From the IMG/VR virus record IMGVR_UViG_3300035188_000399, positions 13,546 through 77,545 of that record: DNA of 64,000 nt, one strand, 5' to 3'. Source of the stretch: a virus. The translations under genes were made by a program, and so were the position numbers. Positions 11,182 through 34,920 of this stretch are shown piece by piece (within the stretch, counting starts at the first letter, position 1; the number at the start of each line of letters is the position of its first letter). The notes under the pieces were generated by a model that was not told the origin of the DNA, did not search any database, and saw only the letters and a list, made by a program, of their open reading frames with translations.

Positions 11182-11526
11182 TTATACCTCATGAAATAAT
11201 TCGACAACAGAAATATGGTTATTAGATGTAATCATATTTCCAAAATGCCACTTATCACCATCTATATAAACATGGTCAGTCATTGAAAACGGTCCGACTT
11301 CTTTTGTTTTAAACATAATAGTCATCGTTTTTGCTTCTGGAGTTTTAGACGTCTTTGTAATAATTATTTTTGTCGTTATCGAAGGTATAGTCGTTTCATT
11401 AACTTCACCAGTACTAAAATCAAACTCTGAATTGGTTGTTTTAGTGAAAGTTGCTTCAATAGCTAGATCTTTAGCTGCATTAAAAGCTTTATTTAGTGCA
11501 TTACCAATTAATGAATTATAAGACAT
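11182..11526 (-). CDS. Head closure/neck protein (putative)
   Basis: Synteny and size, plus FDFSTGEV pattern. Confidence 0.55.
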   Translation of the reverse strand: MSYNSLIGNALNKAFNAAKDLAIEATFTKTTNSEFDFSTGEVNETTIPSITTKIIITKTSKTPEAKTMTIMFKTKEVGPFSMTDHVYIDGDKWHFGNMITSNNHISVVELFHEV

Positions 11527-12008
11527 TAATTAGCCCTCCACCATGTTCTCTTGCCGCTATTCCGGAGTAACGGTTTGATAAGTGTCTTAACAACCATAGG
11601 AATTTTATCCGCAGGTCTAATGACGCTAAGCTTTAAGCCACTAAGTTCTAAGTCTTTGATTAAACCAGTGTTGTCGAGTAATCCATCATTATTTAATAAA
11701 TGATAAGCTAACTCATAAGTAGCTTTAACTACTCTTTGATCAACATCAGTAGAAATTAAAGGAACAAGTATACCTAATTTGGGATCAAAGTATTCACCAT
11801 CTTTACGAGGATGTGCAAGTAACTGATTTGGACTTGTAGCTACTCCAATCCAATCCAATTCATCCAACATAAATGTAGCAGTGCATAATGATTGCTCTTT
11901 CTGTACATCAGGGGCATCAGTCCAAGCTGCTACATCTAATCTATTTTCGAAATAAATATTGGCCTCAGTTACAGTAGCATTTGAAGTAACGCCTTTAACT
12001 AGTGCCAT
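11526..12008 (-). CDS. Head-tail adaptor protein
   Basis: TVTEANIYF...QLLAHPR...VVKATYELA pattern of adaptor proteins, directly after the capsid gene. Confidence 0.7.
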   Translation of the reverse strand: MALVKGVTSNATVTEANIYFENRLDVAAWTDAPDVQKEQSLCTATFMLDELDWIGVATSPNQLLAHPRKDGEYFDPKLGILVPLISTDVDQRVVKATYELAYHLLNNDGLLDNTGLIKDLELSGLKLSVIRPADKIPMVVKTLIKPLLRNSGKRTWWRAN

Positions 12009-12018: not shown

Positions 12019-13242
12019 TTAAGAATGGAATACAGGCAAGATACCTAATGATAATGCAGATTGTGTTTTACGTGTCCACACACCTCTTGTGCTGCCAATA
12101 ACAGATGCTGCAGTAAGTGCTTTAGTAACACCGCCTTCAACAACACCCATATAGTCAGCATCAGATGGGAATGCAGTTTTAGCACCATTCCAATCGTAAC
12201 CAGCAGGAGCTAATACATAACCCCAACGATTCCAGATAGAAGTTGTACCGCCACCTTTATATTTGTTAGCATCACGGTATACTTCAACAGAATCAGGTAC
12301 AGTTAAGTTTTCCATAGCGATTGCACCAGGCAATACAATGAAAGAAGTTTTAGTACCTACTACGTCAACACCAGCACCTGTATTGATTTTAGTCAATTCA
12401 GCAGATGATAATGATTGTGAAGCACGTGTAGTAATTAAACGGAATTTACCGTTAAAGATTGTGTTAAAGTTAATGTTACCATCAACAATAGTTGTTTCGT
12501 CAACAAAGTTAGCTGAACGGAATGAAGCCAAAGTTTCAGGAGATACAACTAAGTATGCCCAATCTGGTTCATAGTCTTTGAATGCCATACCAAATGCATT
12601 TAAGAAACCTTCAGCACGTGACGCGCCTTGGTATGCATAGTTAGTAGCGCCTGCAGGTGAAACACCATTAGCAGTAGTAATTTTGTTTGTACCAAGATCA
12701 ACATAGAAACCATAAGATTTATCTGCAGGATCATTGGTGAATGTTTGACCGCCTACACCAGTTACACCTGTACCTGTGGCAGCACCATTCAATAATTCAG
12801 AAACAGCAACACCTTTTAACACAGAAAGAATAGCATTGTGTTCGTCTTGAGCACGGGTTTCACCGAAGTCACGACCAATTTTAGCTAAACCGTCTTGTTG
12901 TGTTACGATTTGTTGCATATTAACTTTTTCAGCACCATGTGTACGCACAGTTTTAATGTATGTGCTGTAGTCAGTGTCATAGTTAGTTTTTGTACCATCT
13001 GTAGAGTCAGTTAATGACGCAACATTGATAGTTGGGTTTAATGGTTTGAACCAACGCATTTGACCGATAAAGGTTTCTGTGCTAGTGTCAATTTGTGGAT
13101 TAGAAGAAGTGATACCTGTACCAGATAATTTCTTTGCAGTGGTGTAAGCTTCATCGCTATAAGCACCAATCGCTTCTTGTAATACATAGTTATTATTTAA
13201 ACCCGAAACCCCTGTAGGGAGGGTTAAAGTTGAAGCACCCAT
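12019..13242 (-). CDS. Major capsid protein
   Basis: 407 aa, follows the scaffold, coat-protein-like composition. Confidence 0.8.
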   Translation of the reverse strand: MGASTLTLPTGVSGLNNNYVLQEAIGAYSDEAYTTAKKLSGTGITSSNPQIDTSTETFIGQMRWFKPLNPTINVASLTDSTDGTKTNYDTDYSTYIKTVRTHGAEKVNMQQIVTQQDGLAKIGRDFGETRAQDEHNAILSVLKGVAVSELLNGAATGTGVTGVGGQTFTNDPADKSYGFYVDLGTNKITTANGVSPAGATNYAYQGASRAEGFLNAFGMAFKDYEPDWAYLVVSPETLASFRSANFVDETTIVDGNINFNTIFNGKFRLITTRASQSLSSAELTKINTGAGVDVVGTKTSFIVLPGAIAMENLTVPDSVEVYRDANKYKGGGTTSIWNRWGYVLAPAGYDWNGAKTAFPSDADYMGVVEGGVTKALTAASVIGSTRGVWTRKTQSALSLGILPVFHS

Positions 13243-13263
13243 CTTTTATTTTCCTTAAAGTAT

Positions 13264-13902
13264 TTATTTCCTGCGAAGTGACCCTTCAGCAGCACGTTTA
13301 AGTACTTCATCTTGTGATAAGTTGAATAAAGATTTATTCGAAGTATCTTGAGAAGTACTGCTAGAACTTGTCTGACCTGCCCCTGTCGAAACTTTTGGTT
13401 TGAATAAGAAAGAATTATTATCGTCTTCAGAAAATTGTTTTATAAAGGTTCTTAGATCAGTTCCTGATTTATGCACCCATACTCCATTTTCATTTTGTAT
13501 AAGTTGCGATGCCACATCCATATATGCCATATCTGCAGCTTTATCACTCCTAAACGTATACCCACTAAGAATAGATTTTACTTCTAAGTCCCTAGCAAGT
13601 TCTATGTTACGTTTTGTTATCGTTTCCAATTTAGCATTGGCTTCCGCTAACTGAAGTTCATAAGCTTCTTTATGTTTTCCTTCTTCTTGAAGTCTTTTTA
13701 ATTCAGCTTCTTTTTCTTTTTGTTCATACTCTGCAGCTTTCTTTAACGCGTCGTCACGTTCCTTATAAGCATTATCAAGTTTGGACTTAATAGGTTTAAG
13801 AGCTTCCTGGATTTTCGAGTCCACATCATCCACAGGAGGATTGGAAGGAGCAGGAGGCGGAGTAGTATTGTTAGTTTCTTCTTGTTCGACATTTTCGGTC
13901 AT
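13264..13902 (-). CDS. Capsid scaffolding protein
   Basis: Charged coiled coil, FLFKPKVSTGAG near the C-terminus, upstream of the capsid gene. Confidence 0.75.
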   Translation of the reverse strand: MTENVEQEETNNTTPPPAPSNPPVDDVDSKIQEALKPIKSKLDNAYKERDDALKKAAEYEQKEKEAELKRLQEEGKHKEAYELQLAEANAKLETITKRNIELARDLEVKSILSGYTFRSDKAADMAYMDVASQLIQNENGVWVHKSGTDLRTFIKQFSEDDNNSFLFKPKVSTGAGQTSSSSTSQDTSNKSLFNLSQDEVLKRAAEGSLRRK

Positions 13903-13978
13903 TGGTAATTTCCTTTGAGTACAACTCAGTTACATAGAACAGATACAATCTGCCCTATAGGATATTTTGTTTTAATGT

Positions 13979-13997
13979 TTAGGGTTAATTTAACGGG
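13979..13997 (-). promoter_or_regulatory. Class A repeated motif (putative phage RNAP promoter)
   Basis: CCCGTTAAATTAACCCTAA upstream of the scaffold/capsid operon. Confidence 0.65.
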
Positions 13998-14092
13998 TTC
14001 TATTAATCCCTAAGATATACATCTATTAGTATATTTATTAAGAATATATGATAGACTGATTAACTAAGGGATTATAATATAGGGGGACCGAC

Positions 14093-14112
14093 TTAGGGTT
14101 AATTTAACGGGG
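14093..14112 (-). promoter_or_regulatory. Class A repeated motif (putative phage RNAP promoter)
   Basis: Exact CCCCGTTAAATTAACCCTAA copy. Confidence 0.65.
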
Positions 14113-14113
14113 T

Positions 14114-14335
14114 CTAACTAACCAAAACCCAATCTTCTGCTAATAAATCAGAGACTGAAGGAACCCATGTATCAAAAGAGTTTCTGACATTTTTAATGAC
14201 AAAGTGAGAATTCAATTCAGAAAACTCAAAGTCATGCGCTTTGACTAATTTGATATACATATCTTTTCCGTTCCAACCGCTACGTGCTAGTTTTTGACCA
14301 GCAATTATCATATCTAATGCGTGACTAAATCTCAT
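14114..14335 (-). CDS. DUF2829 / Tad2-like (Thoeris anti-defence sponge family) protein
   Basis: F..AL....G.KLARSGWNGKDMY...WVPSVSDLLAEDW is the DUF2829 signature. Probable start at 14335. Confidence 0.75.
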   Translation of the reverse strand: MRFSHALDMIIAGQKLARSGWNGKDMYIKLVKAHDFEFSELNSHFVIKNVRNSFDTWVPSVSDLLAEDWVLVS

Positions 14336-14466
14336 TTGTGTTTTGCTCCGCATACAGTACATGTAAAACCTTTCTTTTGATCTGGGTTCATTACACGCAT
14401 TTGTTTACCGTGGAGATTATCTTGATTAGGGTGTTGACATGTACATCTTTTAATTTCTGCTGACAT
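14332..14466 (-). CDS. Small Cys/His-rich (zinc-finger-like) protein, 44 aa
   Basis: MSAEIKRCTCQHPNQDNLHGKQMRVMNPDQKKGFTCTVCGAKHK. ATGA overlap with the next gene. Below the ORF-track cut-off. Confidence 0.6.
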   Translation of the reverse strand: MSAEIKRCTCQHPNQDNLHGKQMRVMNPDQKKGFTCTVCGAKHK

Positions 14467-14470
14467 ATAA

Positions 14471-17400
14471 TTATCCTATTCCATAGAAACCCCAATCATC
14501 ATCAAACTTAGTTGGATCGGGAATTTCACTCATAACATCTTTTTTAGTTAAGATGTCTTTTTCTGTTAATATTTTACCACCGACAACTGATTTGCCTGCT
14601 ACAGGTATTAATCCTTTGTCAATAGCTTCGTTTAAATATTGATCATATAATTCTTTAGGGAAACCTCTTGCTAACATTTCATCTAATGTAACTTTAACAG
14701 GATTTTTATCTAATACATTAGCGTAAAGTTTTCTTATACCCTTCCGGGCCTCCAACATATCGGCTGCATTGGCGAAAAACGCATCGTGAATGGTGCTTGT
14801 GGCAATCTTATTGTCTCGTCCCCATAGGTGGAAATTTTTGACCAATGTTGCGTCATTGGAGTGGTTTCCGTTGACTGCATAAGCTGTGCGTGCTTTTGTG
14901 GCATCTGCGATATCATTTATTTTCCCATCAGCATTTACTACTTGTTCCCACCAAGTAGCTTCGGTCTTTTGTTGTATTTGGACTAAGTTATTAATCCAAT
15001 TACCATCTTTATCTTTATATGCTAATCGTTCTTCAAAAGATTGTGTGAAATTTTGTTCGATAATCTTACCATCAAAATTTACCCATGGGACATTAGTCCA
15101 TGACTTAGGAAGCTTATTAGCATAAAATATTTCAAAACCTTTAGATATATTTAATTTTTCAATAGGTTCTAATCTAAATACCTTAAATCCAGTACGTCTG
15201 TCATTAGGTGCTTTTACACCATATATTAAATCAGCTAATGTTCCATCTGGTTTCCAGCCATCAAATCGTTTTAAAAATTTCTCTGATAGCGCTTCACCAG
15301 CTTTTAGTCCTAGTATTTCACTTATCCTGTCAGGGAGGACATAACCTTTTTTACGAACACCTAAAACTGCGGTAGTTCCTATTGATTTCCAATCTAAAGC
15401 AGCTTGAGAAGGTTTGGCATTAGTCAGGTAATCTTCAGCCAATCTGCCGAAAAATTTTGTAAAGTCTTTTAAAATAGGTACTTGTTCACTAAGATGCTCA
15501 GACATTAATTTAGCAATAGCTTGAAAATCTCTTGGCGTAACAACCATATCATAGGTATGTGTCATCTTTTCCACTAAGTCTTTAGTGGCAGGATCAAGGA
15601 AATATAACTGTTCCATAATCTCGTCACCAGGATCTAGGCCTTTATTAAATATGTCTTTTACATTTTCTCTTAATTGTTTTAGTTGCGCAGTAGTTTCAGG
15701 ATCAAACTTTTCATATCTTGCTGCACGTGCTGATATTTCATTTAATACTTTGTCTCTATCACTAGCTCTAACAACTAAAGTAGGTGCAAATGTTTCAGGC
15801 TTTTTAGCTACATTAACTAATTCTTCTTGTAACGCTGAATTAAGATCTGAAATTGTCTTTTCTGTATCTGTAGTAGCAGGTGTAAATCCTGCATCTTCCA
15901 AAGCCATTTCAGCTGCTTGTTTATTTGTCTTTAGATTATAAACACTAGCTTCATCTTTAATGATAGTATCTTCACCAAATCTATTTGACTTTAAAATACG
16001 TTTTTGAGCTTCTAATAATTTGAAAGCTCTAGAATCAGAAGGGACATTTAAAGATTTTAAATGCTCATCCAAAAACTCACCGAGTTCTTCTACAACTTGC
16101 ATAGCAATATATTTCTTAGTATCGCCTTTTGAGCGCTGTTCAAATTTAGCTTTATTTTCAGCTATTTTCTCTTTAGAAAATTTCTCGCCAGTCTTATGAT
16201 CGAATGTTTTATATGTAGCACGTTCTTTTCGTTCATCTGTTAGTTCAATATCAGCGGTATGTAACCATTTAAATGTATCTTTTAACTCTGCAGGAGATAA
16301 CTTACCTTTCATAGCTTTAGCAATTAAATCACCTTGAGCTTTAATAATTTCGTCTGGTGTACCTACATAATTAGGGTCTGTTTTGTTTTCAACACCTAAT
16401 ACACGTAATAAGCCAGCTGAGTCTTGTCTTTCAGATAACAAACCTTCTGTCACTTTTACTTCAGGCGGTTTTGCAGGTTTCTTTTCCAATACTTTTGCAA
16501 GCTTACCTTCAACATTAAGAATTCCAGTTCTTTCTCCAGCTCCATAAAACGTAACCATATTTTGAGCTTTTGCAGCTTTACGTAAATCCTTTTCATTGAG
16601 ACCTAATCTTTCATTTAATACTTTAAATCGTGGATCATTAAATGTTGCTGCAGCAATTTCATCATATAGACGTCTTTTCTGATTTGTAGGAACAACATTA
16701 GATAGCGATGCAAGCTGTTTATTCTTAGTAGTTAAAGCAATAATCTGTGCACCAGATGACGAAGCATCTTGTTCAAGAGCAAGAGCAGTTTTATAGGAAT
16801 TCATTCTATTAGTTGAAGCTAAATTTTTCAAATCTGACTCAGACAAAGTGTAATGCAAAGGACTACTTCCAACATCTGATTTAGTTTTTATTTCAAATGT
16901 TTTAGATGTTTTAGCTGCATATTTCAATCTATCTACGCCTCTCGAATGCCCAACTACTAATGCTGCTTTTTGATCAGGTTCAGTAAAATCTGCACCAATG
17001 TCAAATTCAACTCGATAACCGTTATTTTCTAACTTAGCTTTTATATCGTTATAAAACTTATCAGCTAACGGATTACCTTTTATAAACTTAGGATTACCTT
17101 TTACGATAACAGCTAGTGGTTTTTCATTTAGATAATTATCTATCTTAGCCGCTTCCATAGCAAACCTAAAGAACTTACCTAACTCTTCGCCTTCAACTAA
17201 TTGCACCATATCAGACTCTAATATAGCGCGAATATCTCCTGGTTTACCACGTAACATTTTATTACCAATATCTACCATCTCTGGCCACAATTTATCAGCA
17301 ATCTTTTGTCTGCCTGTAAATGACAATGAATTATATCTGCCTTCAAATACATCATTCAGACCGCCCATGAACGCGCCTATTTGATCTCTAAAGTTTCTAT

Positions 17401-20107
17401 AACCATCTTCACCAAGAACTTTTTCAACTTCAGTATTTAAGAAAGGTCTGAATGATTCTCCTGATTGCGGACTAATAAGGCCACGATCATAGATCCTAGC
17501 CCGATGGTCAACAAAAGCATGATTACTGAAAGAGTAGCCATTATTTCTAAGCCAATCCATAGACTTGAAACGCTCATATGCATCACCTCTGGAAGAAATA
17601 TAGTGTTTATATTCGTTTAAATCATTATACTTTTTAGCATTACCTTTATCATCTTCAAAGTATAATAACTTTTGTGTAAAGTCATAAAAGTCATTGTCAA
17701 TTTTGTATTTAGATTGAGATGCCCAATTTAATGCATCAGTTAAATTCTTGTCAACAAATTCTTCAGGAAAGTCAGAAAAACTATTAGTAGATGTAATAGG
17801 TATACGTGTATCTTCTAAACCTAGGAGACCTCTGTCAATAAAATAAGTTTTATAGCCCTCGCGAAAAACCAGTTTATTCTTCTTTGTTGTTACGCCAACA
17901 CGTAGGCCGACCTCCACTTTCCGTGTGAGCTGTGAATATTCTTGTATTCGAGGATCTACAACTCTTATGTTGTATGACAGAGTGTCATAATAAGGGCCAA
18001 ATAAAGAACCGCTAAGTCTACTTTTCATTCTTCGTTTTTGAACACCATATGTTTCAACTTCAAAGAATTTATTTACATTTTTAGCTTCTAAAAGCTTCAT
18101 ACCTGTTTCATACCATTTACGTCTTGTACCATTAAGATTCGCAAGATTATATAAATCTCTTCCAAGGGCAATAGCAAATTGGTCTCTGTCTGGCATATCA
18201 GCCATACTTAATCTATGAGCAAATTTAAGATAAAATTGTTGTAATGCAGATTCAGTTAAGCGATCTTTACCTGTAGGTAATTTTCTTAAAGTAATAGGAA
18301 TTTTATAGTCAAATACATTACGCAACTCTCTCGCTATTTTAGGTGCTGTATTGTCTTCCCAATAATTCTTAGCAGTAATATTGTCTATAAAATTATCATG
18401 TAAATCTTGCAATTGAGTAGGGCCTAGCACTGGATCAATATAATTATTCTGTTTTAGTTTCTTCAATACGTTGGTATCACTACGTATCTGAGTCTCAATA
18501 GCATCAGAAACATTCATAACATCAAATTTAATTTGACCTTGTACTACAGCCTTAAAGTTATTCCATTGTTCACCATTATTTCTAAATCTTGTGAACAATA
18601 TACGAAGATTATCTACCACAACAGCTCGTTCATTGACACTCATCTTTTCACTAAGTGTATCATTAAATGACTTAATGAACTCTTTATCTTTTGGCTTTAA
18701 AACATCACTTTGTTCTGCAAGTCTTAAGTTATTGTTGAGTACGGATGGATTAGGTTGATATAATCTTGTATCTTCGTAGCGCCCTGTAACGGGATTAAAG
18801 ACGAGTTGATCCTCCGTTGGAAGACTGTTAAGCACTCTTGTTTTGGCAGCTTTCTTTGTATGTATAAGTGCGCCTCGATAGTTTGTAAGGGACAATGTAC
18901 CATCTAATTCTCCTGATTGTAAGAGATAATAATCTTTTAATGTTTGGATTAATTTAGGATCACCTATAAGATCATCTGGTGTCATAATAGGTAATTGCAT
19001 CGCATCTAATTTAGCTTTAGCATTTGCAAACTTTTGTGTATCATTAGGCAATGTGTAAGTAGGGTCAGTCATGCGTCTCAATTCTTTAATACCAATAGTG
19101 TTACCTTCTGGATTAGTGAATTGATCGACAGTAAGTTGTCCGCTTTGAAACATATTAACTTTTTTATAATCACCTAAATGTCTTAATTGCACATCTTGTG
19201 GTTGTCTTAGCAGCCAGTCATTATAACTTTCTCTCAATGGCGTATTACCATCATAAAAAGCTTTTTGTTTGTCCGTAAGTCCTGCTAAGTTTCGCTTACG
19301 TACTTGTGCTACGCTTTCTAAATCTGCAATGTCTTTCCATGATTTAAACACTGGAACAGTAGTAGACCTGCAATGCCAATGTGCTGGCGGGAGATGTGTT
19401 GTATCATTTATCGGATATATTTCACCATCTCTATGTGCACATAGCGGGGTTGTTCGTGCGTCAAGGACAGCAACGTATTGCCATCCTTGTAACGCTTTTT
19501 CATTTGCCTTATAAATCGCATGATCAGCTTGTGAGGATACGGATGTGATAGCCGTTATTACCAGACCTCTTGACTGCATGCGAGTTATATTATGTACATT
19601 TCCTGTACGTACTTGTAGAGCTATTTCATCTACGCTTTTTCCGTCAGCTATACCTTTACGTATAACTGCTTCTAATCTAATTTTTTCATTCTTAGCAATG
19701 CCTGACCAGCCTTGCTCCATTGTTCCATTTTCACTTAATGGATTTTTCAGAACGATTTCTTCAGCTATTCTATTCTTAGGTCTTTCTGTACGCCATATCT
19801 TACCCATTGCTACTTCAACTTTTTGATAAGCATATGAGAGCTGGTCTGATACAAGAGACGATAAGTCTTTTTGAACCGAATTATTAATAGACTTATATGT
19901 CTTTCTTAATTCTTGGTCAACAGCTTCTCTAAATCTATCAAAGCCTCGTCCTGATAATTCTGCATCTTTAATTAATTTGTCTAGTCTAACAACATGACCA
20001 TCAATAACTAAATCAACTTTACCAGAGACTCTTCTCTCATATAAACGGATCATCGCTGCGCGATCTAGTGTTTTATCGTATATTTGTGTATTACTATTGA
20101 CGATCAT
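14471..20107 (-). CDS. MuF (SPP1 gp7-like) minor head domain fused to a T7-family single-subunit RNA polymerase; putative virion RNAP
   Basis: MuF motifs QYVAVLDARTTPLC and PPAHWHCRST. RNAP motifs DHRARIY..SPQ, EQDASSSGAQ (A), RKAAKAQNMVTFYG (B), NGNHSNDA and TIHDAF (C). Sits directly after the portal. Confidence 0.88.
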   Translation of the reverse strand: MIVNSNTQIYDKTLDRAAMIRLYERRVSGKVDLVIDGHVVRLDKLIKDAELSGRGFDRFREAVDQELRKTYKSINNSVQKDLSSLVSDQLSYAYQKVEVAMGKIWRTERPKNRIAEEIVLKNPLSENGTMEQGWSGIAKNEKIRLEAVIRKGIADGKSVDEIALQVRTGNVHNITRMQSRGLVITAITSVSSQADHAIYKANEKALQGWQYVAVLDARTTPLCAHRDGEIYPINDTTHLPPAHWHCRSTTVPVFKSWKDIADLESVAQVRKRNLAGLTDKQKAFYDGNTPLRESYNDWLLRQPQDVQLRHLGDYKKVNMFQSGQLTVDQFTNPEGNTIGIKELRRMTDPTYTLPNDTQKFANAKAKLDAMQLPIMTPDDLIGDPKLIQTLKDYYLLQSGELDGTLSLTNYRGALIHTKKAAKTRVLNSLPTEDQLVFNPVTGRYEDTRLYQPNPSVLNNNLRLAEQSDVLKPKDKEFIKSFNDTLSEKMSVNERAVVVDNLRILFTRFRNNGEQWNNFKAVVQGQIKFDVMNVSDAIETQIRSDTNVLKKLKQNNYIDPVLGPTQLQDLHDNFIDNITAKNYWEDNTAPKIARELRNVFDYKIPITLRKLPTGKDRLTESALQQFYLKFAHRLSMADMPDRDQFAIALGRDLYNLANLNGTRRKWYETGMKLLEAKNVNKFFEVETYGVQKRRMKSRLSGSLFGPYYDTLSYNIRVVDPRIQEYSQLTRKVEVGLRVGVTTKKNKLVFREGYKTYFIDRGLLGLEDTRIPITSTNSFSDFPEEFVDKNLTDALNWASQSKYKIDNDFYDFTQKLLYFEDDKGNAKKYNDLNEYKHYISSRGDAYERFKSMDWLRNNGYSFSNHAFVDHRARIYDRGLISPQSGESFRPFLNTEVEKVLGEDGYRNFRDQIGAFMGGLNDVFEGRYNSLSFTGRQKIADKLWPEMVDIGNKMLRGKPGDIRAILESDMVQLVEGEELGKFFRFAMEAAKIDNYLNEKPLAVIVKGNPKFIKGNPLADKFYNDIKAKLENNGYRVEFDIGADFTEPDQKAALVVGHSRGVDRLKYAAKTSKTFEIKTKSDVGSSPLHYTLSESDLKNLASTNRMNSYKTALALEQDASSSGAQIIALTTKNKQLASLSNVVPTNQKRRLYDEIAAATFNDPRFKVLNERLGLNEKDLRKAAKAQNMVTFYGAGERTGILNVEGKLAKVLEKKPAKPPEVKVTEGLLSERQDSAGLLRVLGVENKTDPNYVGTPDEIIKAQGDLIAKAMKGKLSPAELKDTFKWLHTADIELTDERKERATYKTFDHKTGEKFSKEKIAENKAKFEQRSKGDTKKYIAMQVVEELGEFLDEHLKSLNVPSDSRAFKLLEAQKRILKSNRFGEDTIIKDEASVYNLKTNKQAAEMALEDAGFTPATTDTEKTISDLNSALQEELVNVAKKPETFAPTLVVRASDRDKVLNEISARAARYEKFDPETTAQLKQLRENVKDIFNKGLDPGDEIMEQLYFLDPATKDLVEKMTHTYDMVVTPRDFQAIAKLMSEHLSEQVPILKDFTKFFGRLAEDYLTNAKPSQAALDWKSIGTTAVLGVRKKGYVLPDRISEILGLKAGEALSEKFLKRFDGWKPDGTLADLIYGVKAPNDRRTGFKVFRLEPIEKLNISKGFEIFYANKLPKSWTNVPWVNFDGKIIEQNFTQSFEERLAYKDKDGNWINNLVQIQQKTEATWWEQVVNADGKINDIADATKARTAYAVNGNHSNDATLVKNFHLWGRDNKIATSTIHDAFFANAADMLEARKGIRKLYANVLDKNPVKVTLDEMLARGFPKELYDQYLNEAIDKGLIPVAGKSVVGGKILTEKDILTKKDVMSEIPDPTKFDDDWGFYGIG

Positions 20108-20116
20108 GTGTCACCA

Positions 20117-21706
20117 TTATTCTTTAATTATTTTCGGTTTTACAGCGGCTTCTGTTTGCATCGCATATTGGTCATTATACTTAGTTGCTGCAGGTATAAT
20201 TTGAGGGTCAGCATTAACTTCTTCTAAACCTGCTTCATCATCATATTCTGAATCAAGAATATCATTTGCTTTAAGCATTTGTAGCCAAACAGTTCTAGGC
20301 AATAAACCGGATTGATACCATTGTGTTACAAGATTTAACCAATCAGCACCTAAAGGAACTGGATCAAAATCTGCAGAAAGATTGAATACAATATCACACG
20401 AATCAATTTGTAATCCATATCTCCAATTTATCATTAGACATATTACTTGTTTTAATGTACTAGAGATTTTAGTACTTAATACACTAAGTTGTGCTGTTTG
20501 AGCAGCATTACGAATTTCTAATGCTACACCTGATTGTTCGTTTTCAGTGGTAAGCATTCTAATGCCAAGCTTAGCCATCTCATCGATAGATGCTTCAATA
20601 GCTTTTTGCATATCTTGTAATGCTTCTGTAGGTGTTTTTAAGACATCTGCTTTATCATCTTGGCGTAATCTTATCCAAGACCCTAATCCAGCGTCTACTA
20701 TTTCGTCAAATTGTTCATCACCCATATCTGACATAATAACTGGCGTATATGTCGCTGCACCATAGAGTAGGTGATTACGTCTACTAATTTTGTTATAGAG
20801 ACTAATCTCCTTATCTACAATAGGCATTAGTAATGGCATGATAGGTTCTATATTACCATTAACAGGCCACGCAGGAATATGCTTTAAAGGCTCACCGTTA
20901 TTAAGAATGTTATCAAATGTTTCAATTAATTCAAAATGACCTGATGGTAATGGTTGTTGTAATTTTTCACCAATACCGCCTACTTTTAATGTTTGATCGC
21001 CATTATCTTTAGTAGTTCCCATGAACTTTCTAATTTGATAATTACCTTGTTCATTTAATTCATGTACCCATACCGTAGGGACACGCGCAGCATGAAATTC
21101 ATTAATAGAATAATCTTCTGAGTAACCTTTAACGATTACATATTTGAGAACTGTTTTACCAAACACATCAACCGCTGTAGCCCAGTTTACAATAGTTTCA
21201 GCTTTTTGAAGAATAGGATATGGTTTAATCATATCTCTAGTTTCTTTATCTAAATTTTCTGCATTGCTAATTGATGGATAGTCTACAAATACCCATGCAC
21301 GTGATGTATTAATTTCTTCCCATAATAGTTCATCTAAGAAAGAAACTAAGGTACAATCATCACGTCCAATATTATTAATGAGCCATTCTTTAGCCTCTTC
21401 AGGTACTCCATCAGGTAATTGCAATATAGGAGCTTTTCTTAATAAGCCACCTACAAGCATCTTAGCAAATTGTGCTGTAATACCTGGCAATTCAGCTTCT
21501 GACTTATAAAAGTCATACTGAGCTTGACTCATTGTTGTTGAAAAAGGAATTAATAAATTACTGAATCTAATAAGATCAATATATTGATCAATTTCTTTTA
21601 CAGTACGTTCCCCATTGCATACAGCACGTGCCTTATTCCACGAAGGTTTAAGATACTCATACGCTTGACAAGGATCCGCAACTGTCTTAGTAGGGCCGTA
21701 GCTCAT
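20117..21706 (-). CDS. Portal protein (DUF4055/SPP1-like)
   Basis: 529 aa; patterns RAWVFVDYP, EQSGVALEIR and LVTQWYQSGLL; precedes MuF. Confidence 0.85.
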   Translation of the reverse strand: MSYGPTKTVADPCQAYEYLKPSWNKARAVCNGERTVKEIDQYIDLIRFSNLLIPFSTTMSQAQYDFYKSEAELPGITAQFAKMLVGGLLRKAPILQLPDGVPEEAKEWLINNIGRDDCTLVSFLDELLWEEINTSRAWVFVDYPSISNAENLDKETRDMIKPYPILQKAETIVNWATAVDVFGKTVLKYVIVKGYSEDYSINEFHAARVPTVWVHELNEQGNYQIRKFMGTTKDNGDQTLKVGGIGEKLQQPLPSGHFELIETFDNILNNGEPLKHIPAWPVNGNIEPIMPLLMPIVDKEISLYNKISRRNHLLYGAATYTPVIMSDMGDEQFDEIVDAGLGSWIRLRQDDKADVLKTPTEALQDMQKAIEASIDEMAKLGIRMLTTENEQSGVALEIRNAAQTAQLSVLSTKISSTLKQVICLMINWRYGLQIDSCDIVFNLSADFDPVPLGADWLNLVTQWYQSGLLPRTVWLQMLKANDILDSEYDDEAGLEEVNADPQIIPAATKYNDQYAMQTEAAVKPKIIKE

Positions 21707-21707
21707 A

Positions 21708-21905
21708 TTAGCCTCTCAAAAGCTTATTGAAGTCTTCAATAGTACCTTCAAATCTTTCTAGTGTTGCATTGCTAACAGCCACAATTTTATCGTCTTCTGT
21801 TTTTGTAATTTCCCAATTAGAAGGTGTTGTATCTTCGAAAGATTTTACAGCTAATGGAGCAGCAGTAACTTTAGGAGCTACTACAGGAGTTTCTTGTTCT
21901 GCCAT
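21708..21905 (-). CDS. Hypothetical protein
   Basis: 65-aa ORF packed between the endolysin and the portal. Confidence 0.6.
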   Translation of the reverse strand: MAEQETPVVAPKVTAAPLAVKSFEDTTPSNWEITKTEDDKIVAVSNATLERFEGTIEDFNKLLRG

Positions 21906-21906
21906 T

Positions 21907-22356
21907 TTATTTTCCTAAAAATTTGTTTGATTCACGTTTACGTCTATTAGTAAGACCTTGTACTACTTTACCTTCGTCTTTATTCCATCTAAGGAATTGA
22001 GCAGCTACCTGATCTCTAGGTGCGCCTGAATTTAACAATCGTAATAATGTAGAACCTTTGAAAGCCGGTACACCTACATTGTATGTAAATTCTACTAATG
22101 CGTCAAATTCGTTTTGTGTCAAAGGTACAGCAACAGATTTGTCTACTGCGCTTACGTATTGTTTAAGTGTAACTTTGAAAAGTTGTAATGCACGTTCCTT
22201 AGTAATGGGAGCGTCCTTTAGTGTAACTTTAGTACCGTTTTCATAAACAGTGCTGCCAAAGCCAATTGTAGGGACGCCCTCACCATCTGGATACGGATGC
22301 GATCTAAACCCTTCAGAGCCTTTTAAGTCCTCTGCGCCTTTATCGCTAAGTTCCAT
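21907..22356 (-). CDS. Endolysin, GH24 phage lysozyme
   Basis: EG-x7-D-x5-T catalytic triad (SEGFRSHPYPDGEGVPTIGFG), plus QNEFDALVEFTYNVG and GLTNRRKRE. Confidence 0.93.
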   Translation of the reverse strand: MELSDKGAEDLKGSEGFRSHPYPDGEGVPTIGFGSTVYENGTKVTLKDAPITKERALQLFKVTLKQYVSAVDKSVAVPLTQNEFDALVEFTYNVGVPAFKGSTLLRLLNSGAPRDQVAAQFLRWNKDEGKVVQGLTNRRKRESNKFLGK

Positions 22357-22358
22357 AA

Positions 22359-22526
22359 TTAAGCCGCTGTGAGAGCTGCGACTGCAACGCCAACTGCAAC
22401 TTCTTTTGCCACGTCTTGCACGTCAGGGTTGGTTACAACCTTTTCTACAGCATCTGTGGCTTGGTGTACAGTGTGGTTAACTGCTTTTCCTACATCTTTA
22501 AATGCTTTATCTAAACTATTTGTCAT
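22359..22526 (-). CDS. Small protein with hydrophobic C-terminus, 55 aa
   Basis: MTNSLDKAFK...EVAVGVAVAALTAA. Read manually; overlaps the upstream stop. Confidence 0.5.
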   Translation of the reverse strand: MTNSLDKAFKDVGKAVNHTVHQATDAVEKVVTNPDVQDVAKEVAVGVAVAALTAA

Positions 22527-22675
22527 GACACAGCCTCTTCAACAACTTCTATAATAATATCGTGTGGTACCGCAGGTAAAAGGGCTTCCACAACATCTTC
22601 TAATACTTCTTCAACAGCAGGTTCTACCGGAGTAGTGTTTTTTAGCATTTCTTCTATTTGTTCCCAACTTGACAT
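22523..22675 (-). CDS. Small acidic protein, 50 aa
   Basis: MSSWEQIEEMLK...EVVEEAVS with SD AGGAG. Confidence 0.5.
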   Translation of the reverse strand: MSSWEQIEEMLKNTTPVEPAVEEVLEDVVEALLPAVPHDIIIEVVEEAVS

Positions 22676-22683
22676 AAAATCTC

Positions 22684-22938
22684 CTACATGGTTGGTTTAT
22701 ACATTTCTGTATCTTTAGTGTTAGCGGTGTTAGCGCCTACGTTATAACCATATTCAAAAGCTTCTGAAACTAACTTATGTAAAGCAGTTTCAAATGCCAT
22801 TTTATATTCAGCTTGTTTAGCAATTTTCTCTTCAGGCACAAATGCAGTACTTTCTTTAATTGCCCCTGATTTCTCAGCAGGCTCGAATACAGAATCGCAT
22901 TCTTCTGCTGATAGTTTAATTGTATGTACTACTTGCAT
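22684..22938 (-). CDS. Hypothetical protein
   Basis: ORF track; operon packing. Confidence 0.6.
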   Translation of the reverse strand: MQVVHTIKLSAEECDSVFEPAEKSGAIKESTAFVPEEKIAKQAEYKMAFETALHKLVSEAFEYGYNVGANTANTKDTEMYKPTM

Positions 22939-23261
22939 TGAAATTCCTTATACGACATCATAAAACGTCTAGTGATTGCTTGGCCCTCTGGTGTATAAAA
23001 GAAATCTACGACTTTATCTTGATTACCAGATTGGGATAGCCATGTTTGTTCTTCTTCCGATAGTGCAGAACCAAGAGCAGCTAGCATGGGATTCACACTA
23101 GCTGCTACAGTTTGGTTAAGACTCGTGTTTAGCTTGGACATCTCTTCCTGAAATACTCTTCGCATCTGATCTTCTACGTTTTCCACTGTCTTTGAGACCG
23201 TAGGTTGGATCTGCGCTTGGAGTAATCGGATTCGTTCCTCTAATGATTGAGTCACGTCCAT
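22929..23261 (-). CDS. Hypothetical protein
   Basis: ORF track; operon packing. Confidence 0.6.
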   Translation of the reverse strand: MDVTQSLEERIRLLQAQIQPTVSKTVENVEDQMRRVFQEEMSKLNTSLNQTVAASVNPMLAALGSALSEEEQTWLSQSGNQDKVVDFFYTPEGQAITRRFMMSYKEFQCK

Positions 23262-24511: not shown

Positions 24512-24834
24512 TATTCACCTGCCCATATTCTATAAGGGGTTGTCGGTGCTGTAATTAACGGCAATGCAGCCTCTTGTTCAGCTGTCAAATCAGCTTTAAT
24601 ATTAACATGCCATCCGTCAATGGGTAGCATTTCAGGATATTGCAGGTTATCTTCAGTACGTAATACTTGACCTGTTGGTTTATAAATTAAGCCAATTACA
24701 TCTGTAGTAATTTTTGTAATAAATTGGGTATCACTTTCTGTACCCCAAACTGGTTCAACAGTTGCTAAGCCTAATTCTAAGAACTTAGCTGTGAACTCAG
24801 CTTCATTTGTGAATTTTAAAAAATAGTTTTTCAT
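24511..24834 (-). CDS. Fibre-associated protein/chaperone
   Basis: YFLKF...DVIG.I...GWHVN...P.TPYRIWA pattern, typical of genes following phage fibre genes. Confidence 0.55.
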   Translation of the reverse strand: MKNYFLKFTNEAEFTAKFLELGLATVEPVWGTESDTQFITKITTDVIGLIYKPTGQVLRTEDNLQYPEMLPIDGWHVNIKADLTAEQEAALPLITAPTTPYRIWAGE

Positions 24835-26954
24835 GTTGTTGTGAGTCCTTGAAGTTCAGTGTTGCTTAGACGTTTGGGGTAATAAGCTATTTTGGAAATT
24901 GTTCTAACCCCTACTATATTATTATATGTGCCCATGCCTATTTTTAGATTTGTAAAGGTTGGAATTGTTGCTGAGGTATCTGTATAGATTATATCATTTC
25001 CATTTGAGTAAGCAATATCATTGGCTTTATAACCTATAGCTTGCCTTGTAGTTAAAGACTCTGTATACTGTTTATAAGCATCTGCCTGAACAATGTTAGC
25101 ATTTTCAAAATAAAGACCAGTACTCTTATAAGGATTTACAAAAAGACATAATCTCGTGCCAAAAATGGTATTATCTAATTGCGCCAACTGCCCAAAGCCA
25201 TTAGCGCCTAATGTTACTGGTATTTTTGCAGTAAGTGCTAAAGTACCCTCATCTTGTCTATACCAACTAGAAAAATTAGTCCCAGTAATAACAGCATTAT
25301 CCGCTGGACGAGTTGCTTGAGCTGAACTAGAGATATCTGCAGTACGAATACCTTGGCTAGAAGAAATTGACGGAATATAGCTTGTAGCTGTATTGCCTGC
25401 TTCTAGTTGTGCGCCCCAGATGTAGATGCCGGATGTGCCGTCGCCTGTATAAGATGCCCCATTTTTTGCAGCAATAATCCATATTGTTCCAACCAAAGCA
25501 GCCGAATCAGTAGTAGCAGATATTCTGAACCATCCATTTCCAACCGGTGTAATACTCGTTGCTGTTGTTGAGCCGTTGCCTATTACCGAAGTAGCTGTTG
25601 CCAAATTAAAGTCTGCTAAAATTGGGTTTTTTGGAGTTACTGCTTCATACGAACTTAGTCTTATAGTGGTATGCTCAGCGGCTTTCACATATAGCGACAA
25701 TGTTATTGCGGCAGATGGTGGTGTGTAGATATTATAAATACTGTGAGCTGCTGTAGTAGCTGATTCAACCAATTTGTCAGCAGTTAAAGTCCCATCTGGC
25801 GCAGTTGCTGCATTTGCTGTTATCGTTGCATTACTTTTAACCCAAATCGCATTATCAAACTGTTCGCTATAAGTCAGCAAATTAGTAGCCGCAGGTTCAA
25901 GTAACAACTTAGGTGATAACGCTAAATTCAATGGATTATAGTTATATCTAGCTACATTAGTTGCAGCAGATTGAATTAAACCATTCGAGCCAATGAATGT
26001 ACCAGTTGATGCCCGTGAGGTAAAGCTATCGGCGGAAGGGATATAGCTTGTCGCAAATGCGCCTTGTTCTAGTTGTGCGCCCCACATGTAAAAGCCCGAA
26101 GTGCCATTTCCAATATAATTAGCATTTGTACTAGAGCCAGTGCATGGGAGTACAAGGAATCCTCTAAAGTTATTCCCTGAAGAACCTGTAGTCGGTGTAA
26201 TATAGCATCTATACCACCCATTTCCAACAGGAATTATACCAGAATTATCAGCTGTTGCACTACCATTGCGAAATATAACAGTGCCGTTTGACAAGTCAAC
26301 ATAAAGGCTTGCACCTCCACCATCAAATGAATCTCCTCCTACTGTTAAGCAAACTACTGTAGTTTCACCTGCCTTGAGGTAAACCGACATTGCGTACCTG
26401 GTAGAAAGACTTAAAGCTATTGTCTTACCTGTATAATGGTTTTGCGCTACAGAATCTTTTGATTCAACAATTTTACATGCAGTCAATAATCCATCTGGAG
26501 CAATTGCAGCGTTAGGTAATAATGCTACATTATAGGAAAGCCAGTAATTACTGGCAGCGCCATATGTTTCTGTATATTGTAATAAATTAGTGCGTTGTTC
26601 TTCAATCAGCAACCCTAGCGATTCACCTGTAATTGGATTATGATCAAAACGAGCTTCATTACTTGTGGCACTCTTAACCAACCCATTAGCATCTGTGTAA
26701 GTTCCAATACCTCCACGCGTAAATGTAATACGTGAATCTAAAGTTTTACTCTTAGCGAAATCTAATAACAGACTAGGCCTGATAGTTGCTCTGCCTGATC
26801 TAGCTAATGCTGAATTCTTAATATCACCTATTGTAACAGTACCGAGTGTATCAATTTCTGTATTACCCCTAAAGTAATCAGCGTCTTCATATGCCATTGT
26901 ACCTAAGTCGGCATTCGTGGGGGTTTGGTTTGGTTTTGTTCCTATTAATCCCAT
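24831..26954 (-). CDS. Fibre/spike protein with duplicated carbohydrate-binding-like modules
   Basis: FTR...ARFDHNPITGESLGLLIEEQRTNLL and two GNGWYR/WFR...WGAQLE units. Confidence 0.75.
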   Translation of the reverse strand: MGLIGTKPNQTPTNADLGTMAYEDADYFRGNTEIDTLGTVTIGDIKNSALARSGRATIRPSLLLDFAKSKTLDSRITFTRGGIGTYTDANGLVKSATSNEARFDHNPITGESLGLLIEEQRTNLLQYTETYGAASNYWLSYNVALLPNAAIAPDGLLTACKIVESKDSVAQNHYTGKTIALSLSTRYAMSVYLKAGETTVVCLTVGGDSFDGGGASLYVDLSNGTVIFRNGSATADNSGIIPVGNGWYRCYITPTTGSSGNNFRGFLVLPCTGSSTNANYIGNGTSGFYMWGAQLEQGAFATSYIPSADSFTSRASTGTFIGSNGLIQSAATNVARYNYNPLNLALSPKLLLEPAATNLLTYSEQFDNAIWVKSNATITANAATAPDGTLTADKLVESATTAAHSIYNIYTPPSAAITLSLYVKAAEHTTIRLSSYEAVTPKNPILADFNLATATSVIGNGSTTATSITPVGNGWFRISATTDSAALVGTIWIIAAKNGASYTGDGTSGIYIWGAQLEAGNTATSYIPSISSSQGIRTADISSSAQATRPADNAVITGTNFSSWYRQDEGTLALTAKIPVTLGANGFGQLAQLDNTIFGTRLCLFVNPYKSTGLYFENANIVQADAYKQYTESLTTRQAIGYKANDIAYSNGNDIIYTDTSATIPTFTNLKIGMGTYNNIVGVRTISKIAYYPKRLSNTELQGLTTT

Positions 26955-29054
26955 TTAGCCTCCTGTAAGTGATTGTAGTTCTGCATTTGACAGACGTTTA
27001 GGATAATATGCTAATTTGAGTATGTGTAAGTTTTGAGTAGGCCCAATTAACATTCTACTCATACCTTGTCCAACTGCAGCAGACGTATCAGTTTCAGTTG
27101 TGCTACCAGAAACTGAAAATGCAATGTCATTAGTTGCGTATGCAAGTGCGCATGATATTACAGTTTGTGATGTAACAGCAGTTCCATTGAAATCCCATTG
27201 AGAAACACTGTTATCAAATCCGTACGAATCAATAGTTGCGCTGCCACTACCGCTCACATACCTTAATGAAATAAATGAGCCTGCACCGCCTGCACCCCTA
27301 TCTACCCATGCCATAGTCGGAACCGATACTGCAGTAGTAGTTGACATTAATCTTGAAGTTGCATGCAATGTGCCTTCATCTTGTCTGTACCATTTTAAAT
27401 CTGTCATCACAGCGCCATCAACCGCTCGCGTATATTGACCCGATGAACTTGCATCAGCACTACGAGTAACTTGGCTAGAGGTTGTTGGGATATAGCTTGT
27501 AGCTGTAGTTCCTACTTCTAGTTGTGCGCCCCATGCATAATAATATTCGCCTATTACGCCACTGCCTCGGATGACACCGTTTATTCCCCATCCTCTAAAT
27601 AGTATTGATGTTCGACTATTAGTTGCATCTCGCGTTATTACATAACTTATTCGGTACCAGCCATTACCCACTGGAATAATAGAAGGTTGATTACGCCCAG
27701 TATCACCGCCAATATAAGTACCTGTACTAAGATTAAATACTAGATTATCTTCGGTATTACCTATATAATACATATTAAATACAAATGTAGTAGCCGTGCC
27801 AGCTTTTACAAAAATGGAAGCAGTATAATCTGTTATATTTGAGGCTGGTACTGCAAGTGTGTATTGGAATAACGAAGTCCCACCGCCATCATTAGTTATC
27901 TTATCCGCAGTAGTATTACCATCTGGTGAAGTAGTATTATTTGCAGTAACCGCAATACCAAGATTACCACCTGCATTTTCCCAAACAGCATTATCAAACT
28001 GTTCGCTATAAGTCACTAAATTAGTCGCAGCAGGCTCTAATAACAACTTAGGCGCCAATTTCAAATTCATTGGATTATAGTTATATCGCGCAGTATTAAT
28101 AGCCGAAGTTTTAACTAATCCATCAGATCCAATATATGTAGCCGTAGACGCACGAGATGTGAAGGTATCATTCGAAGGGATATAACTGGTGGCAAATGCG
28201 CCTTCTTCTAGTTGTGCGCCCCAGATATATAAGCCGGATGTGCCGTCACCTGTGTATGAAGCAGTTGTACCGTTATCTAAAAAGTATGTTAAAGCAGTTT
28301 GGACATTTAAATTACCCCTGGTGGTCGTCAGTGTGCATCTAATCCAACCATTACCTATTTCAGTTATAGTTGAGCTAGTATTAGTAAAATTTGCATTATT
28401 TGTTGATACAGCGGTAACTTGTTTCGTATCTAAATTAAAAGTAGATGCTGACACATAAGCAACATTATCTGTAAACTGTATTTTAAACCTTCTTGTACTT
28501 CCAGTTGGAAGTTTTTTAATATATATAGACGTAGTAAATGTTTTGTTAGCTAGGCTTTGCGAGGCATAAAATAAGTATTGTAAAGAACTTGTTGATTCAA
28601 TAAAACTTTCAGCAGTCAAAGTCCCATCTGGTGCGGTAGTTGAATTTGTAGTTACTGTTGCTCCCGATTTAAGCCAAGCCGCATTGTCAAAATTCTCACT
28701 ATAACTCAGCAAATTAGTACGTTGCTCTTCAATCAATAACCCTAACGACTCTTTAGTAACTGGATCATGGTCGAAACGTGGTTTACCCGCTTCAACTTTC
28801 TCAAGCAATCCATCAGCATTATACCTAGTACCGATGGACGCTCGTGTAAATGTAATTCTCTTGTCTAATCGCTTAAGATTAGCAAAATCTAACAGCAGAC
28901 TAGGTCTAATGCTACTTTTAGTATTCTCAATATTAACGTTTACATTATCGACTGCATCTTTGAGGTTAATGAAGTTAGTGTCTAACTCTGTATTTGTTAA
29001 TGTTGAATTCTTAGCATACGACCCTGTCTGACGAGTGACAATAGTAACGGCCAT
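26955..29054 (-). CDS. Fibre/spike protein, paralogue of 24831-26954
   Basis: Same modules. The N-terminal LTNTELDTNFINL is an anchor-like motif. Confidence 0.75.
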   Translation of the reverse strand: MAVTIVTRQTGSYAKNSTLTNTELDTNFINLKDAVDNVNVNIENTKSSIRPSLLLDFANLKRLDKRITFTRASIGTRYNADGLLEKVEAGKPRFDHDPVTKESLGLLIEEQRTNLLSYSENFDNAAWLKSGATVTTNSTTAPDGTLTAESFIESTSSLQYLFYASQSLANKTFTTSIYIKKLPTGSTRRFKIQFTDNVAYVSASTFNLDTKQVTAVSTNNANFTNTSSTITEIGNGWIRCTLTTTRGNLNVQTALTYFLDNGTTASYTGDGTSGLYIWGAQLEEGAFATSYIPSNDTFTSRASTATYIGSDGLVKTSAINTARYNYNPMNLKLAPKLLLEPAATNLVTYSEQFDNAVWENAGGNLGIAVTANNTTSPDGNTTADKITNDGGGTSLFQYTLAVPASNITDYTASIFVKAGTATTFVFNMYYIGNTEDNLVFNLSTGTYIGGDTGRNQPSIIPVGNGWYRISYVITRDATNSRTSILFRGWGINGVIRGSGVIGEYYYAWGAQLEVGTTATSYIPTTSSQVTRSADASSSGQYTRAVDGAVMTDLKWYRQDEGTLHATSRLMSTTTAVSVPTMAWVDRGAGGAGSFISLRYVSGSGSATIDSYGFDNSVSQWDFNGTAVTSQTVISCALAYATNDIAFSVSGSTTETDTSAAVGQGMSRMLIGPTQNLHILKLAYYPKRLSNAELQSLTGG

Positions 29055-30845: not shown

Positions 30846-31432
30846 ACGTCAGGTACAAGGTCAGTAAGGCTATATAAAAGCTCTACTGTACCTCTTACTG
30901 GTTTCCATGTTCTAACAAAATTAGATGGATTAGTCGGCTCTGTAACTCTTAATTCAAAGAATCCATATACAGGGCTATCTACTGTTGGACTCTTTTCCCA
31001 TCCTGTAGATATTGTACTAGGAAATCTAATGCTAATATCATTTAAATTAATATTTAACCATTTAGTAGATATTGCACTTGGAGTTTCATTGCCTGAAAGT
31101 AGTAAGAATTTATAATAGAGGCCGTTGTATAAAACTACATCATCGTAATTATATGTATTTGTCGATACCCAATTAGTTGGTGTACGAGGCCTGACAACAG
31201 TTAGTGGTGTTTGAACACCATTTAACTTGATAGTCGATGGTGCTTCTGTTTGTCCATCTACATTTAAGGCTTCTAATAAAACAGCTTCAAATGTATAAGC
31301 AAGAGATGCATCAGTAATAAAATTAAGTGTAATAGGAAATTCGAGTTGTTCACCTTTAATGAATGACCATAAAACACCACCACCATCCGTAATTAGATCA
31401 TCTGTTGCACTATTAAATTTGGATCTAGCCAT
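30842..31432 (-). CDS. Putative structural protein with small carbohydrate-binding-like insert
   Basis: WVSTNTYNYDDVVLYNGLYY resembles a CBM5/12-like motif. Confidence 0.55.
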   Translation of the reverse strand: MARSKFNSATDDLITDGGGVLWSFIKGEQLEFPITLNFITDASLAYTFEAVLLEALNVDGQTEAPSTIKLNGVQTPLTVVRPRTPTNWVSTNTYNYDDVVLYNGLYYKFLLLSGNETPSAISTKWLNINLNDISIRFPSTISTGWEKSPTVDSPVYGFFELRVTEPTNPSNFVRTWKPVRGTVELLYSLTDLVPDV

Positions 31433-31793: not shown

Positions 31794-31803
31794 TTTATTA
31801 TCC

Positions 31804-34900: not shown

Positions 34901-34920
34901 TTAGGGTTAATTTAACGGGG
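34901..34920 (-). promoter_or_regulatory. Class A repeated motif
   Basis: Exact 20-nt copy upstream of the terminase operon. Confidence 0.65.

Follow-up and report, generated by a model that had tools for sequence, protein, structure and literature searches.

A MuF minor-head protein joined to a T7-type RNA polymerase in a lake-water siphovirus: a candidate capsid-delivered transcription enzyme

The 64,000 nucleotides (nt) analysed here (the window; positions 13,546 to 77,545 of IMG/VR record IMGVR_UViG_3300035188_000399) are the right-hand 64 kb of one 77,545-bp virus contig that CheckV rates as 100% complete. They carry a gene in which a MuF head protein is fused to a single-subunit RNA polymerase (RNAP) of the T7 family. 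This MuF-RNAP gene (14471..20107, minus strand (-), as for all real genes of the genome) is a single open frame of 1878 amino acids (213.5 kDa) with 0 internal stops; the uninterrupted open reading frame (ORF) reported in a preliminary description of this DNA is therefore real, and all motif coordinates given there hold on recheck. On balance we lean towards the view that the protein is packaged into the capsid as an active polymerase, is ejected, transcribes the early region and is then followed by a second RNAP, which would amount to an N4-like relay in a siphovirus.

The N-terminal part of the protein (residues 1-372; 18992..20107, -) is a MuF/SPP1 gp7 head-morphogenesis module according to Pfam and PHROGs. 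Its Phage_Mu_F core (PF04233) covers residues 146-250 and thus nt 19358-19672, within the region of about 19350-19750 where the domain had been placed by eye, and scores 52.2 bits (E = 1.2e-13) against a curated cut-off of 29.6. The PHROGs family phrog_241 ('head morphogenesis') matches residues 4-372 (E = 2.6e-60), and the motif HWxCRS at 19364-19381 is invariant in the family alignment. The gene lies directly after the portal gene, which is the canonical place of MuF, and the same order is found in related loci. The fusion is the only MuF match of the genome. Since this genome is rated as 100% complete, the fusion protein must also fill the MuF role in assembly.

The polymerase core comprises residues 709-1878 (14474..17983, -) with thumb, palm, fingers, specificity-loop region and C-terminus, equivalent to T7 RNAP residues 244-883. 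RNA_pol (PF00940) is matched in two stretches (E = 3.5e-10; 39.7 bits versus a cut-off of 22), and so both domains expected in the preliminary description score above their curated cut-offs; phage RNAP families of PHROGs match residues 1093-1202. A phmmer search of the whole protein against PDB sequences gave no relevant match, and T7 RNAP was reached by the family profile only (E = 4e-12). The profile alignment to T7 pairs, residue by residue, DxRGRxY, motif A (D537 equivalent), HSxD and motif C (D812 equivalent). An AlphaFold model of residues 700-1878, based on an alignment of 33 family members, has a mean predicted local distance difference test (pLDDT) score of 75 and is low only in two insertions. 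Its best structural match is T7 RNAP (VIA Z 28.4, 546 residues aligned to T7 244-883, root-mean-square deviation 4.5; Foldseek E = 3e-9), with mitochondrial RNAPs next in the VIA ranking (Z 25-28); the N4 mini-virion RNAP (mini-vRNAP) reaches Z ~20 and N4 RNAPII Z 13. Identity to T7 in the structural alignments is 10-17%.

The ordered set of single-subunit RNAP motifs is present as first described. DHRARIY (residues 867-873; 17489..17509, -) aligns to DWRGRVY of T7. Motif A reads EQDASSSGAQ (16745..16774, -) and contains the catalytic D1114 (16766-16768), motif B reads RKAAKAQNMVTFYG (residues 1176-1189; 16541..16582, -), and NGNHSNDA (residues 1746-1753, with H1749 and D1752) is followed by motif C, TIHDAFF (residues 1772-1778, with H1774 and D1775, the latter at 14783-14785), the two together at 14774..14872 (-). 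Across 33 diverse family sequences with identities down to 22%, D1114, K1180, Y1188, G1189 and D1752 are invariant (33/33), and H1749, H1774, D1775 and the DxRxRxY residues (R870/R872) are conserved in at least 90%. Judged from the alignment, such conservation is what selection for catalysis leaves in an enzyme.

Between the MuF module and the core, a conserved middle region (residues 373-545; 18473..18991, -) is confidently modelled and has no family or fold match, and it is followed by a region weakly like the N-terminal domain of T7 RNAP and of the mitochondrial polymerase POLRMT (residues 546-733; 17909..18472, -; VIA Z ~7). A model of residues 1-760 (pLDDT 84) shows the helical MuF module, the folded middle region and a helical region that ends in a long beta-hairpin (residues 682-716). 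In VIA, residues 578-725 match T7 residues 49-254 (Z 7.0) and residues 547-733 match the N-terminal domain of POLRMT (416-637; Z 7.1). Both matches are weak, yet colinear with the strong one at the C-terminus, and the hairpin falls at the position of the T7 intercalating hairpin; a Z of 7 is, however, no proof. The models predict beta-hairpins at the places expected for the intercalating hairpin and for the specificity loop. Foldseek returned nothing at E <= 0.001 for the N-terminal 760 residues, and in a wide VIA search of the N-terminal half generic helical bundles dominated residues 16-193 and no solved MuF-like fold could be named. The models make a promoter-binding N-terminal domain probable, and we take the polymerase module to extend over about residues 546-1878, some 1300 residues. 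The earlier statement that the RNAP is complete is thus firm for the equivalent of T7 244-883 and weaker for the promoter-binding domain. In the phage collection searched, the closest unfused MuF proteins (28% identity over residues 6-350) are those of the Pelagibacter phages Kolga and Aegir, which also have a separate T7-like RNAP and perhaps show a related lineage in its unfused form.

The architecture is widespread. A word-indexed search among proteins of 1032-3287 residues only yielded 352 protein clusters; among the matches listed, nearly all have both PF04233 and PF00940, and the listed members are typically ~1540 residues long on contigs of 65-90 kb. An exhaustive HMMER search gave 404 representatives, and six of six distant members (25-36% identity) have both domains. 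At least 592 related stretches are found in IMG/VR; a survey of databases, as proposed at the outset, thus shows the arrangement to be common. In the 79 related loci that were fetched for comparison, the MuF, middle and polymerase parts share one frame wherever present, and the order portal, fusion, scaffold, capsid is kept in every locus with flanks that are long enough. Among deposited phages, EBPR siphovirus 1 and the cultured roseophages DSS3_VP1 and DSS3_PM1 (Naomviridae) have the fusion, and its annotation there goes no further than 'head morphogenesis' or 'minor head protein-like'. These comparisons support a fusion that is genuine, conserved and under selection.

The genome has one MuF and two RNAP genes. 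The second RNAP, also T7-like, is encoded 2.5 kb into the early region (57931..60901, -) by exon 1 (59362-60901) and exon 2 (57931-58610), which are separated by an intron (58611-59361) with an HNH endonuclease ORF inside (58672-59127, -). The two exons are colinear with the intact 732-residue RNAP gp080 of DSS3_VP1, and the spliced product of 739 residues is 35% identical to gp080 (E = 9e-139) and ends in EYAFA. A public freshwater metatranscriptome contig joins 58610 to 59362 and skips the 751 nt, whereas a DNA run reads through. The insert splits the Tyr codon of motif B (MTLPY/G), follows a U and ends in G; it is a mobile intron that is spliced out and has group I-like ends. No Rfam family passed the gathering threshold anywhere in the window, and so the intron comes without a group I model. 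The gene is uninterrupted in 10 of 14 related contigs. The second RNAP is a working gene. The RNA libraries with the spliced phage RNA also contain 80-85% of the sampled words of the fusion gene. A break shared by the RNA contigs at 62181 was considered as a transcript start and rejected, since the same break is present in the DNA run and contigs cannot show starts. Interruptions of the same site class as this intron occur in the fusion gene of nine relatives, where 0.5-0.95 kb lie inside motif B (between ...NMV and TFYG); in EBPR siphovirus 1 this insert holds the HNH gene gp48.

Two classes of promoter-like motifs accompany the two polymerases. Class A is present in six copies and one variant in the window, against 0.02 expected by chance, always in gene sense and always outside real genes. 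A tandem pair (sense ACCCCGTTAAATTAACCCTAA; 13980..14112, -) stands just upstream of the scaffold gene, and further copies lie at 34902, 35058, 39820 and 54321, with the variant at 63457; two copies precede the scaffold/capsid genes, and others are found ahead of the packaging operon and the replication genes. In 54 of the 79 related loci the core, CCCGTTAAATTAACCC, stands at the same place and in the same orientation, even where protein identity is ~63%, and the 10-mer AATTAACCCT contained in the motif equals positions 1-10 of a 23-nt consensus drawn from the 14 annotated T3 promoters. The hairpin potential of class A is limited to a weak quasi-palindrome of 4 bp with a 3-nt loop. Class B (sense GCGG-N7-GGTATCTTATATGA) is found upstream of the second RNAP gene at 63352-63382 and 62170-62200 (-), which places two copies between the leading end of the genome and this gene; a third copy is at 40483-40513. 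Related loci have 1-3 copies of class B upstream of the second RNAP gene in 14 of the 16 cases with enough upstream flank. By inspection, neither class shows the spacing of sigma-70 or Bacteroidota promoters. A scan of 13000-23000 for sigma-70 promoters and terminators gave promoter-like matches below those in shuffled sequence and no useful terminator. Class A may be read by the free T7-like enzyme and class B by the capsid-borne one; we infer the latter assignment from the position of class B ahead of the second RNAP gene. Directly upstream of the class A variant at the leading end, the window has some 250 nt of GC-rich non-coding DNA (~63480-63760, -), a candidate for a packaging site, an origin or a structure of the entry end.

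The simplest account of how these elements work together is the following. The 214-kDa late protein would be taken into the procapsid at the portal by its N-terminal MuF module, like SPP1 gp7 and MuF-cargo fusions, and its C-terminal two thirds would be an active, promoter-specific T7-family single-subunit polymerase. A few copies would be present per head and would leave via the tail with the first DNA or ahead of it. Once ejected, the enzyme would read the leading early region with the gene of the second RNAP in it and would probably help to draw the genome in. The second RNAP would serve the class A promoters and with them the replication, packaging and capsid operons, including the late operon that encodes the fusion. 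Packaging is likely because MuF is a head component that is fused to many C-terminal effectors which are packaged and injected (PMC5512222, PMC9503650) and because the fusion is the only MuF of this genome; ejection is suggested by the analogy with N4 and SPP1 gp7. The earlier proposal of a MuF tag that delivers an RNAP is thus backed by the fusion itself, its fold and motifs, the single MuF, the place behind the portal and the literature on MuF cargo, and delivery is a reasonable expectation from these. Host-independent early transcription, as proposed with it, needs revision, since the second RNAP had been overlooked: a relay of two polymerases is probable, and a start by the host enzyme in the manner of T7 is also possible.

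The last point is one of several that weigh against a delivered polymerase. A free T7-like RNAP in the early region permits a T7-style start by host RNAP, for which an injected enzyme is not needed, and this is the strongest argument against its necessity. That a 214-kDa protein can pass the tail of a siphovirus whose tape-measure protein has 3892 residues is an assumption borrowed from N4. The two insertions adjoin motifs A and B, the promoter-binding domain is matched at only Z 7, and the fusion ends in FYGIG, in contrast to the FAFA-type end that is kept by the second RNAP of the same phage. Moreover, promoters of the host type may be present as well.

The main rival holds that the fusion does its work in the producing cell, where it would be a late polymerase held at the portal or procapsid and would, for example, couple late transcription or concatemer processing to packaging, or that the polymerase is removed by cleavage before the DNA enters the head. 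The gene is indeed part of the late structural operon, no ejection signal is identifiable, and T7 RNAP is documented to take part in concatemer processing and packaging. However, a free RNAP is already available for late genes, a prohead protease gene was not recognised in the present annotation, and the literature reads MuF-cargo fusions as packaged and injected; we regard a role in the producing cell as unlikely. A similarly low probability is given to a fusion that is packaged and ejected mainly for genome entry driven by transcription or for replication priming at the entering end, like T7 or mitochondrial RNAP. This proposal shares the packaging evidence with the relay, and a class A variant is found at the very start of the gene-sense strand, beside the GC-rich non-coding stretch; in T3, likewise, the phage promoter phiOL stands at the left end and the primary origin adjoins a phage promoter. 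The proposal needs the same polymerase activity, with which early transcription is compatible. Two further explanations are effectively excluded. A polymerase module that has lost catalysis, or serves instead as an internal head protein that binds nucleic acid, would fit the low identity to T7, the insertions beside the active site and the altered C-terminus, but the catalytic residues are invariant or nearly so across the family and relatives without the insertions are the majority, which leaves this idea with very little weight. Even less can be given to an artefact of assembly or gene calling that joined two genes, the outcome by which the preliminary description would have fallen. The contig is metagenomic and both of its ends form an imperfect repeat; however, the single frame recurs in dozens of contigs that were assembled independently from many samples, which rules out an assembly artefact, and in the cultured DSS3_VP1 and DSS3_PM1, and lake-water metagenomes of at least 13 studies hold the sequence of the present phage.

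At 1878 residues the fusion is ~330 residues above the family norm because of its two in-frame insertions. Insertion 1 (residues 994-1099; 16811..17128, -) is a small domain with a GHSRG motif just before the motif A strand and is found in only 4 related loci. Its homologues are small stand-alone proteins, but also large proteins with SNF2 helicase and KTSC domains or with a phage-type InPase, or with a weak PARP-like match below the Pfam cut-off. The G-H-S-R-G resembles the nucleophile elbow of serine hydrolases, in a domain of just ~105 residues. Insertion 2 (residues 1199-1440; 15788..16513, -) is helical, lies just after motif B and is confined to a subset of close relatives; its homologues are giant proteins, one with a GGDEF domain. 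Pfam has no named family for either insertion, and neither has the ESM Atlas for insertion 1, where the look-up gave only RNA_pol clusters with scores below 0.9, probably from context. An intein was set aside from the sequence alone, as the helical insertion 2 does not have the end residues required of an intein. InPase, ADP-ribosyltransferase (ART) and GGDEF are among the domain types of the 'polyvalent proteins' that are predicted to be packaged and injected (Iyer et al., PMC5512222). Since the relatives of the insertions share this domain pool, the company they keep is circumstantial support for a delivered protein.

Polymerases that are delivered with the virion are known from N4-like podoviruses, crAss-like phages, phiKZ-like jumbo phages and one Thermus siphovirus. 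In the Thermus phage P23-45, with its tape-measure-fused RNAP, and in crAss-like phages, with their virion RNAP, a structural protein of a tailed phage delivers a polymerase. These enzymes are of the two-barrel (multisubunit) type and are fused to a tail protein or packaged in the form of a giant protein; neither is T7-type or linked to MuF. Coliphage N4 (Schitoviridae) has gp50 as its virion RNAP. This is a single-subunit, T7-related enzyme with a related fold, encoded among late/virion genes, carried in the capsid and ejected for early genes before RNAPII takes over, and the present phage also has a second RNAP. However, gp50 has ~3500 residues, lacks a MuF and has regions of its own for ejection (N-terminal) and encapsidation (C-terminal) (PMC5512222), whereas the fusion has 1878 residues and an N-terminal MuF. 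The N4-specific Pfam domains (vRNAP plug, vRNAP_dom_2, N4 helical) are absent from the fusion at E up to 1, its core is nearer to T7 and mitochondrial RNAPs than to N4 (Z 28 versus 20), and the phage has tail genes of the siphovirus type, unlike the podovirus N4. N4-like vRNAP modules were stated to occur only in N4-like phages (Iyer et al. 2017, PMC5512222).

MuF-cargo proteins (toxins, ARTs, RNases, Nudix) have the same layout, with an N-terminal MuF encoded after the portal and a C-terminal enzyme. Their cargo is a small toxin or modifying enzyme, in contrast to the ~1300-residue template-dependent polymerase found here, and where the MuF polymorphic toxins of temperate phages have an adjacent immunity gene the gene next to the fusion is an 82-residue ORF. 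With T7 and T3 RNAP (gene 1 of Autographiviridae) the fusion shares the fold from T7 residue 244 to the C-terminus and motifs A, B, C, DxxGR and HSxD, and the phage shares the class A 10-mer with the T3 promoter consensus. However, T7 RNAP is a free, early, non-virion enzyme of 883 residues, whereas the module of the fusion is very divergent, bears insertions, ends in FYGIG and is joined to MuF. A counterpart in a cultured phage is gp108 (YP_010105321.1) of DSS3_VP1, which infects Ruegeria pomeroyi DSS-3, with the same architecture and gene order (1463 residues; 32% identity over residues 105-1878), in a phage that also has a separate RNAP, the 732-residue gp080 mentioned above. DSS3_VP1 is marine and has deoxyuridine-containing DNA (dU-DNA), whereas the present phage has no Dcd or Dtm homologues; genes of the dCMP-deaminase type, the YfbR-type HD hydrolase type or for ThyX are absent from the whole genome. 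A link to dU-DNA, suggested by the Naomviridae, was therefore rejected for the present phage, and the fusion is not tied to dU genomes.

A fusion of MuF and RNAP is not described in the searchable full-text literature, which leaves out many subscription journals, and RNAP is not listed there among MuF cargos. The description of DSS3_VP1 and the later paper on its dU-DNA enzymes contain neither RNA polymerase or RNAP nor MuF as terms. As far as this literature reaches, the earlier remark that no characterised example is known is borne out; the novelty is in the combination of two known principles, the virion RNAP and the MuF-cargo fusion. A wider reading is attractive, and we put it forward tentatively, at slightly less than even chances: MuF-tethered T7-type polymerases may form a second lineage of capsid-delivered RNAPs that evolved independently, is very widespread, has its own promoter class for each member (class B here) and hands over to a free T7-like RNAP reading the T3-like class A, and that makes long-tailed phages of lake, sludge and sea independent of host RNAP from the first minute. 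The known virion RNAPs have been informative on how proteins leave capsids and how phages escape from the host polymerase. If the proposal is true, the principle of a capsid-delivered RNAP would reach a large, globally distributed group of siphoviruses, the MuF 'cargo tag' would be able to carry a 150-kDa molecular machine, and phage engineering would gain a compact single-subunit polymerase that is targeted to the capsid by nature and comes with two promoter classes to match. The cultured carriers DSS3_VP1 and DSS3_PM1, in whose description the fusion was overlooked, make direct testing possible.

The comparison of fold suggested in the preliminary description, against T7 RNAP and the N4 mini-vRNAP, is that given above (Z 28.4 and ~20), and the surroundings of the gene agree with the original account in most respects. 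The portal gene (20117-21706, -; phrog_145, E = 1e-55, and synteny in related loci) lies directly upstream with a gap of 9 nt. Portal and scaffold were rightly named as the flanks, but an 82-residue ORF (14114-14362) that matches PHROGs of unknown function intervenes before the scaffold gene (13264-13902, -). Then follow the genes for the major head protein (12019-13242, -) and a head-tail adaptor (11526-12008) and, beyond the head genes, those for a major tail protein, a tail terminator and the tape-measure protein. There is no tail-sheath gene among the scanned proteins. From these tail genes and the lack of a sheath gene among the proteins scanned, the phage is classified by sequence as long-tailed and siphovirus-type, in agreement with the first assignment. 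The contig ends C1:1-1970 and C1:75660-77545 (window 62115-64000) form an imperfect direct repeat with 85-100% identity over ~1.9 kb, most likely a terminal redundancy or circular permutation that was assembled from two strain variants; if so, the true genome is nearer 75.6 kb.

The tape-measure gene (window 2-8845 and beyond; C1:10712-22390, -) would, provided that the usual length rule applies, mean a tail of exceptional length; a protein of 2153 residues is encoded downstream of it. Two adjacent paralogous tail proteins of 707 and 699 residues (24831-29054, -; phrog_5939) are both internally duplicated, with repeats of 57-291 nt and 73-86% identity. The region of the large terminase (TerL) gene (31425-34111, -) appears fragmented: a 180-residue piece (33569-34111) matches positions 264-404 of the TerL profile and is followed by an HNH endonuclease ORF (32647-33324), which suggests a second interruption by an intron or homing endonuclease, as reported for the TerL of DSS3_VP1. 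The GC content of the genome is 35%; this low value and one 'Flavobacterium sp.' label on a search match are mere hints to the host.

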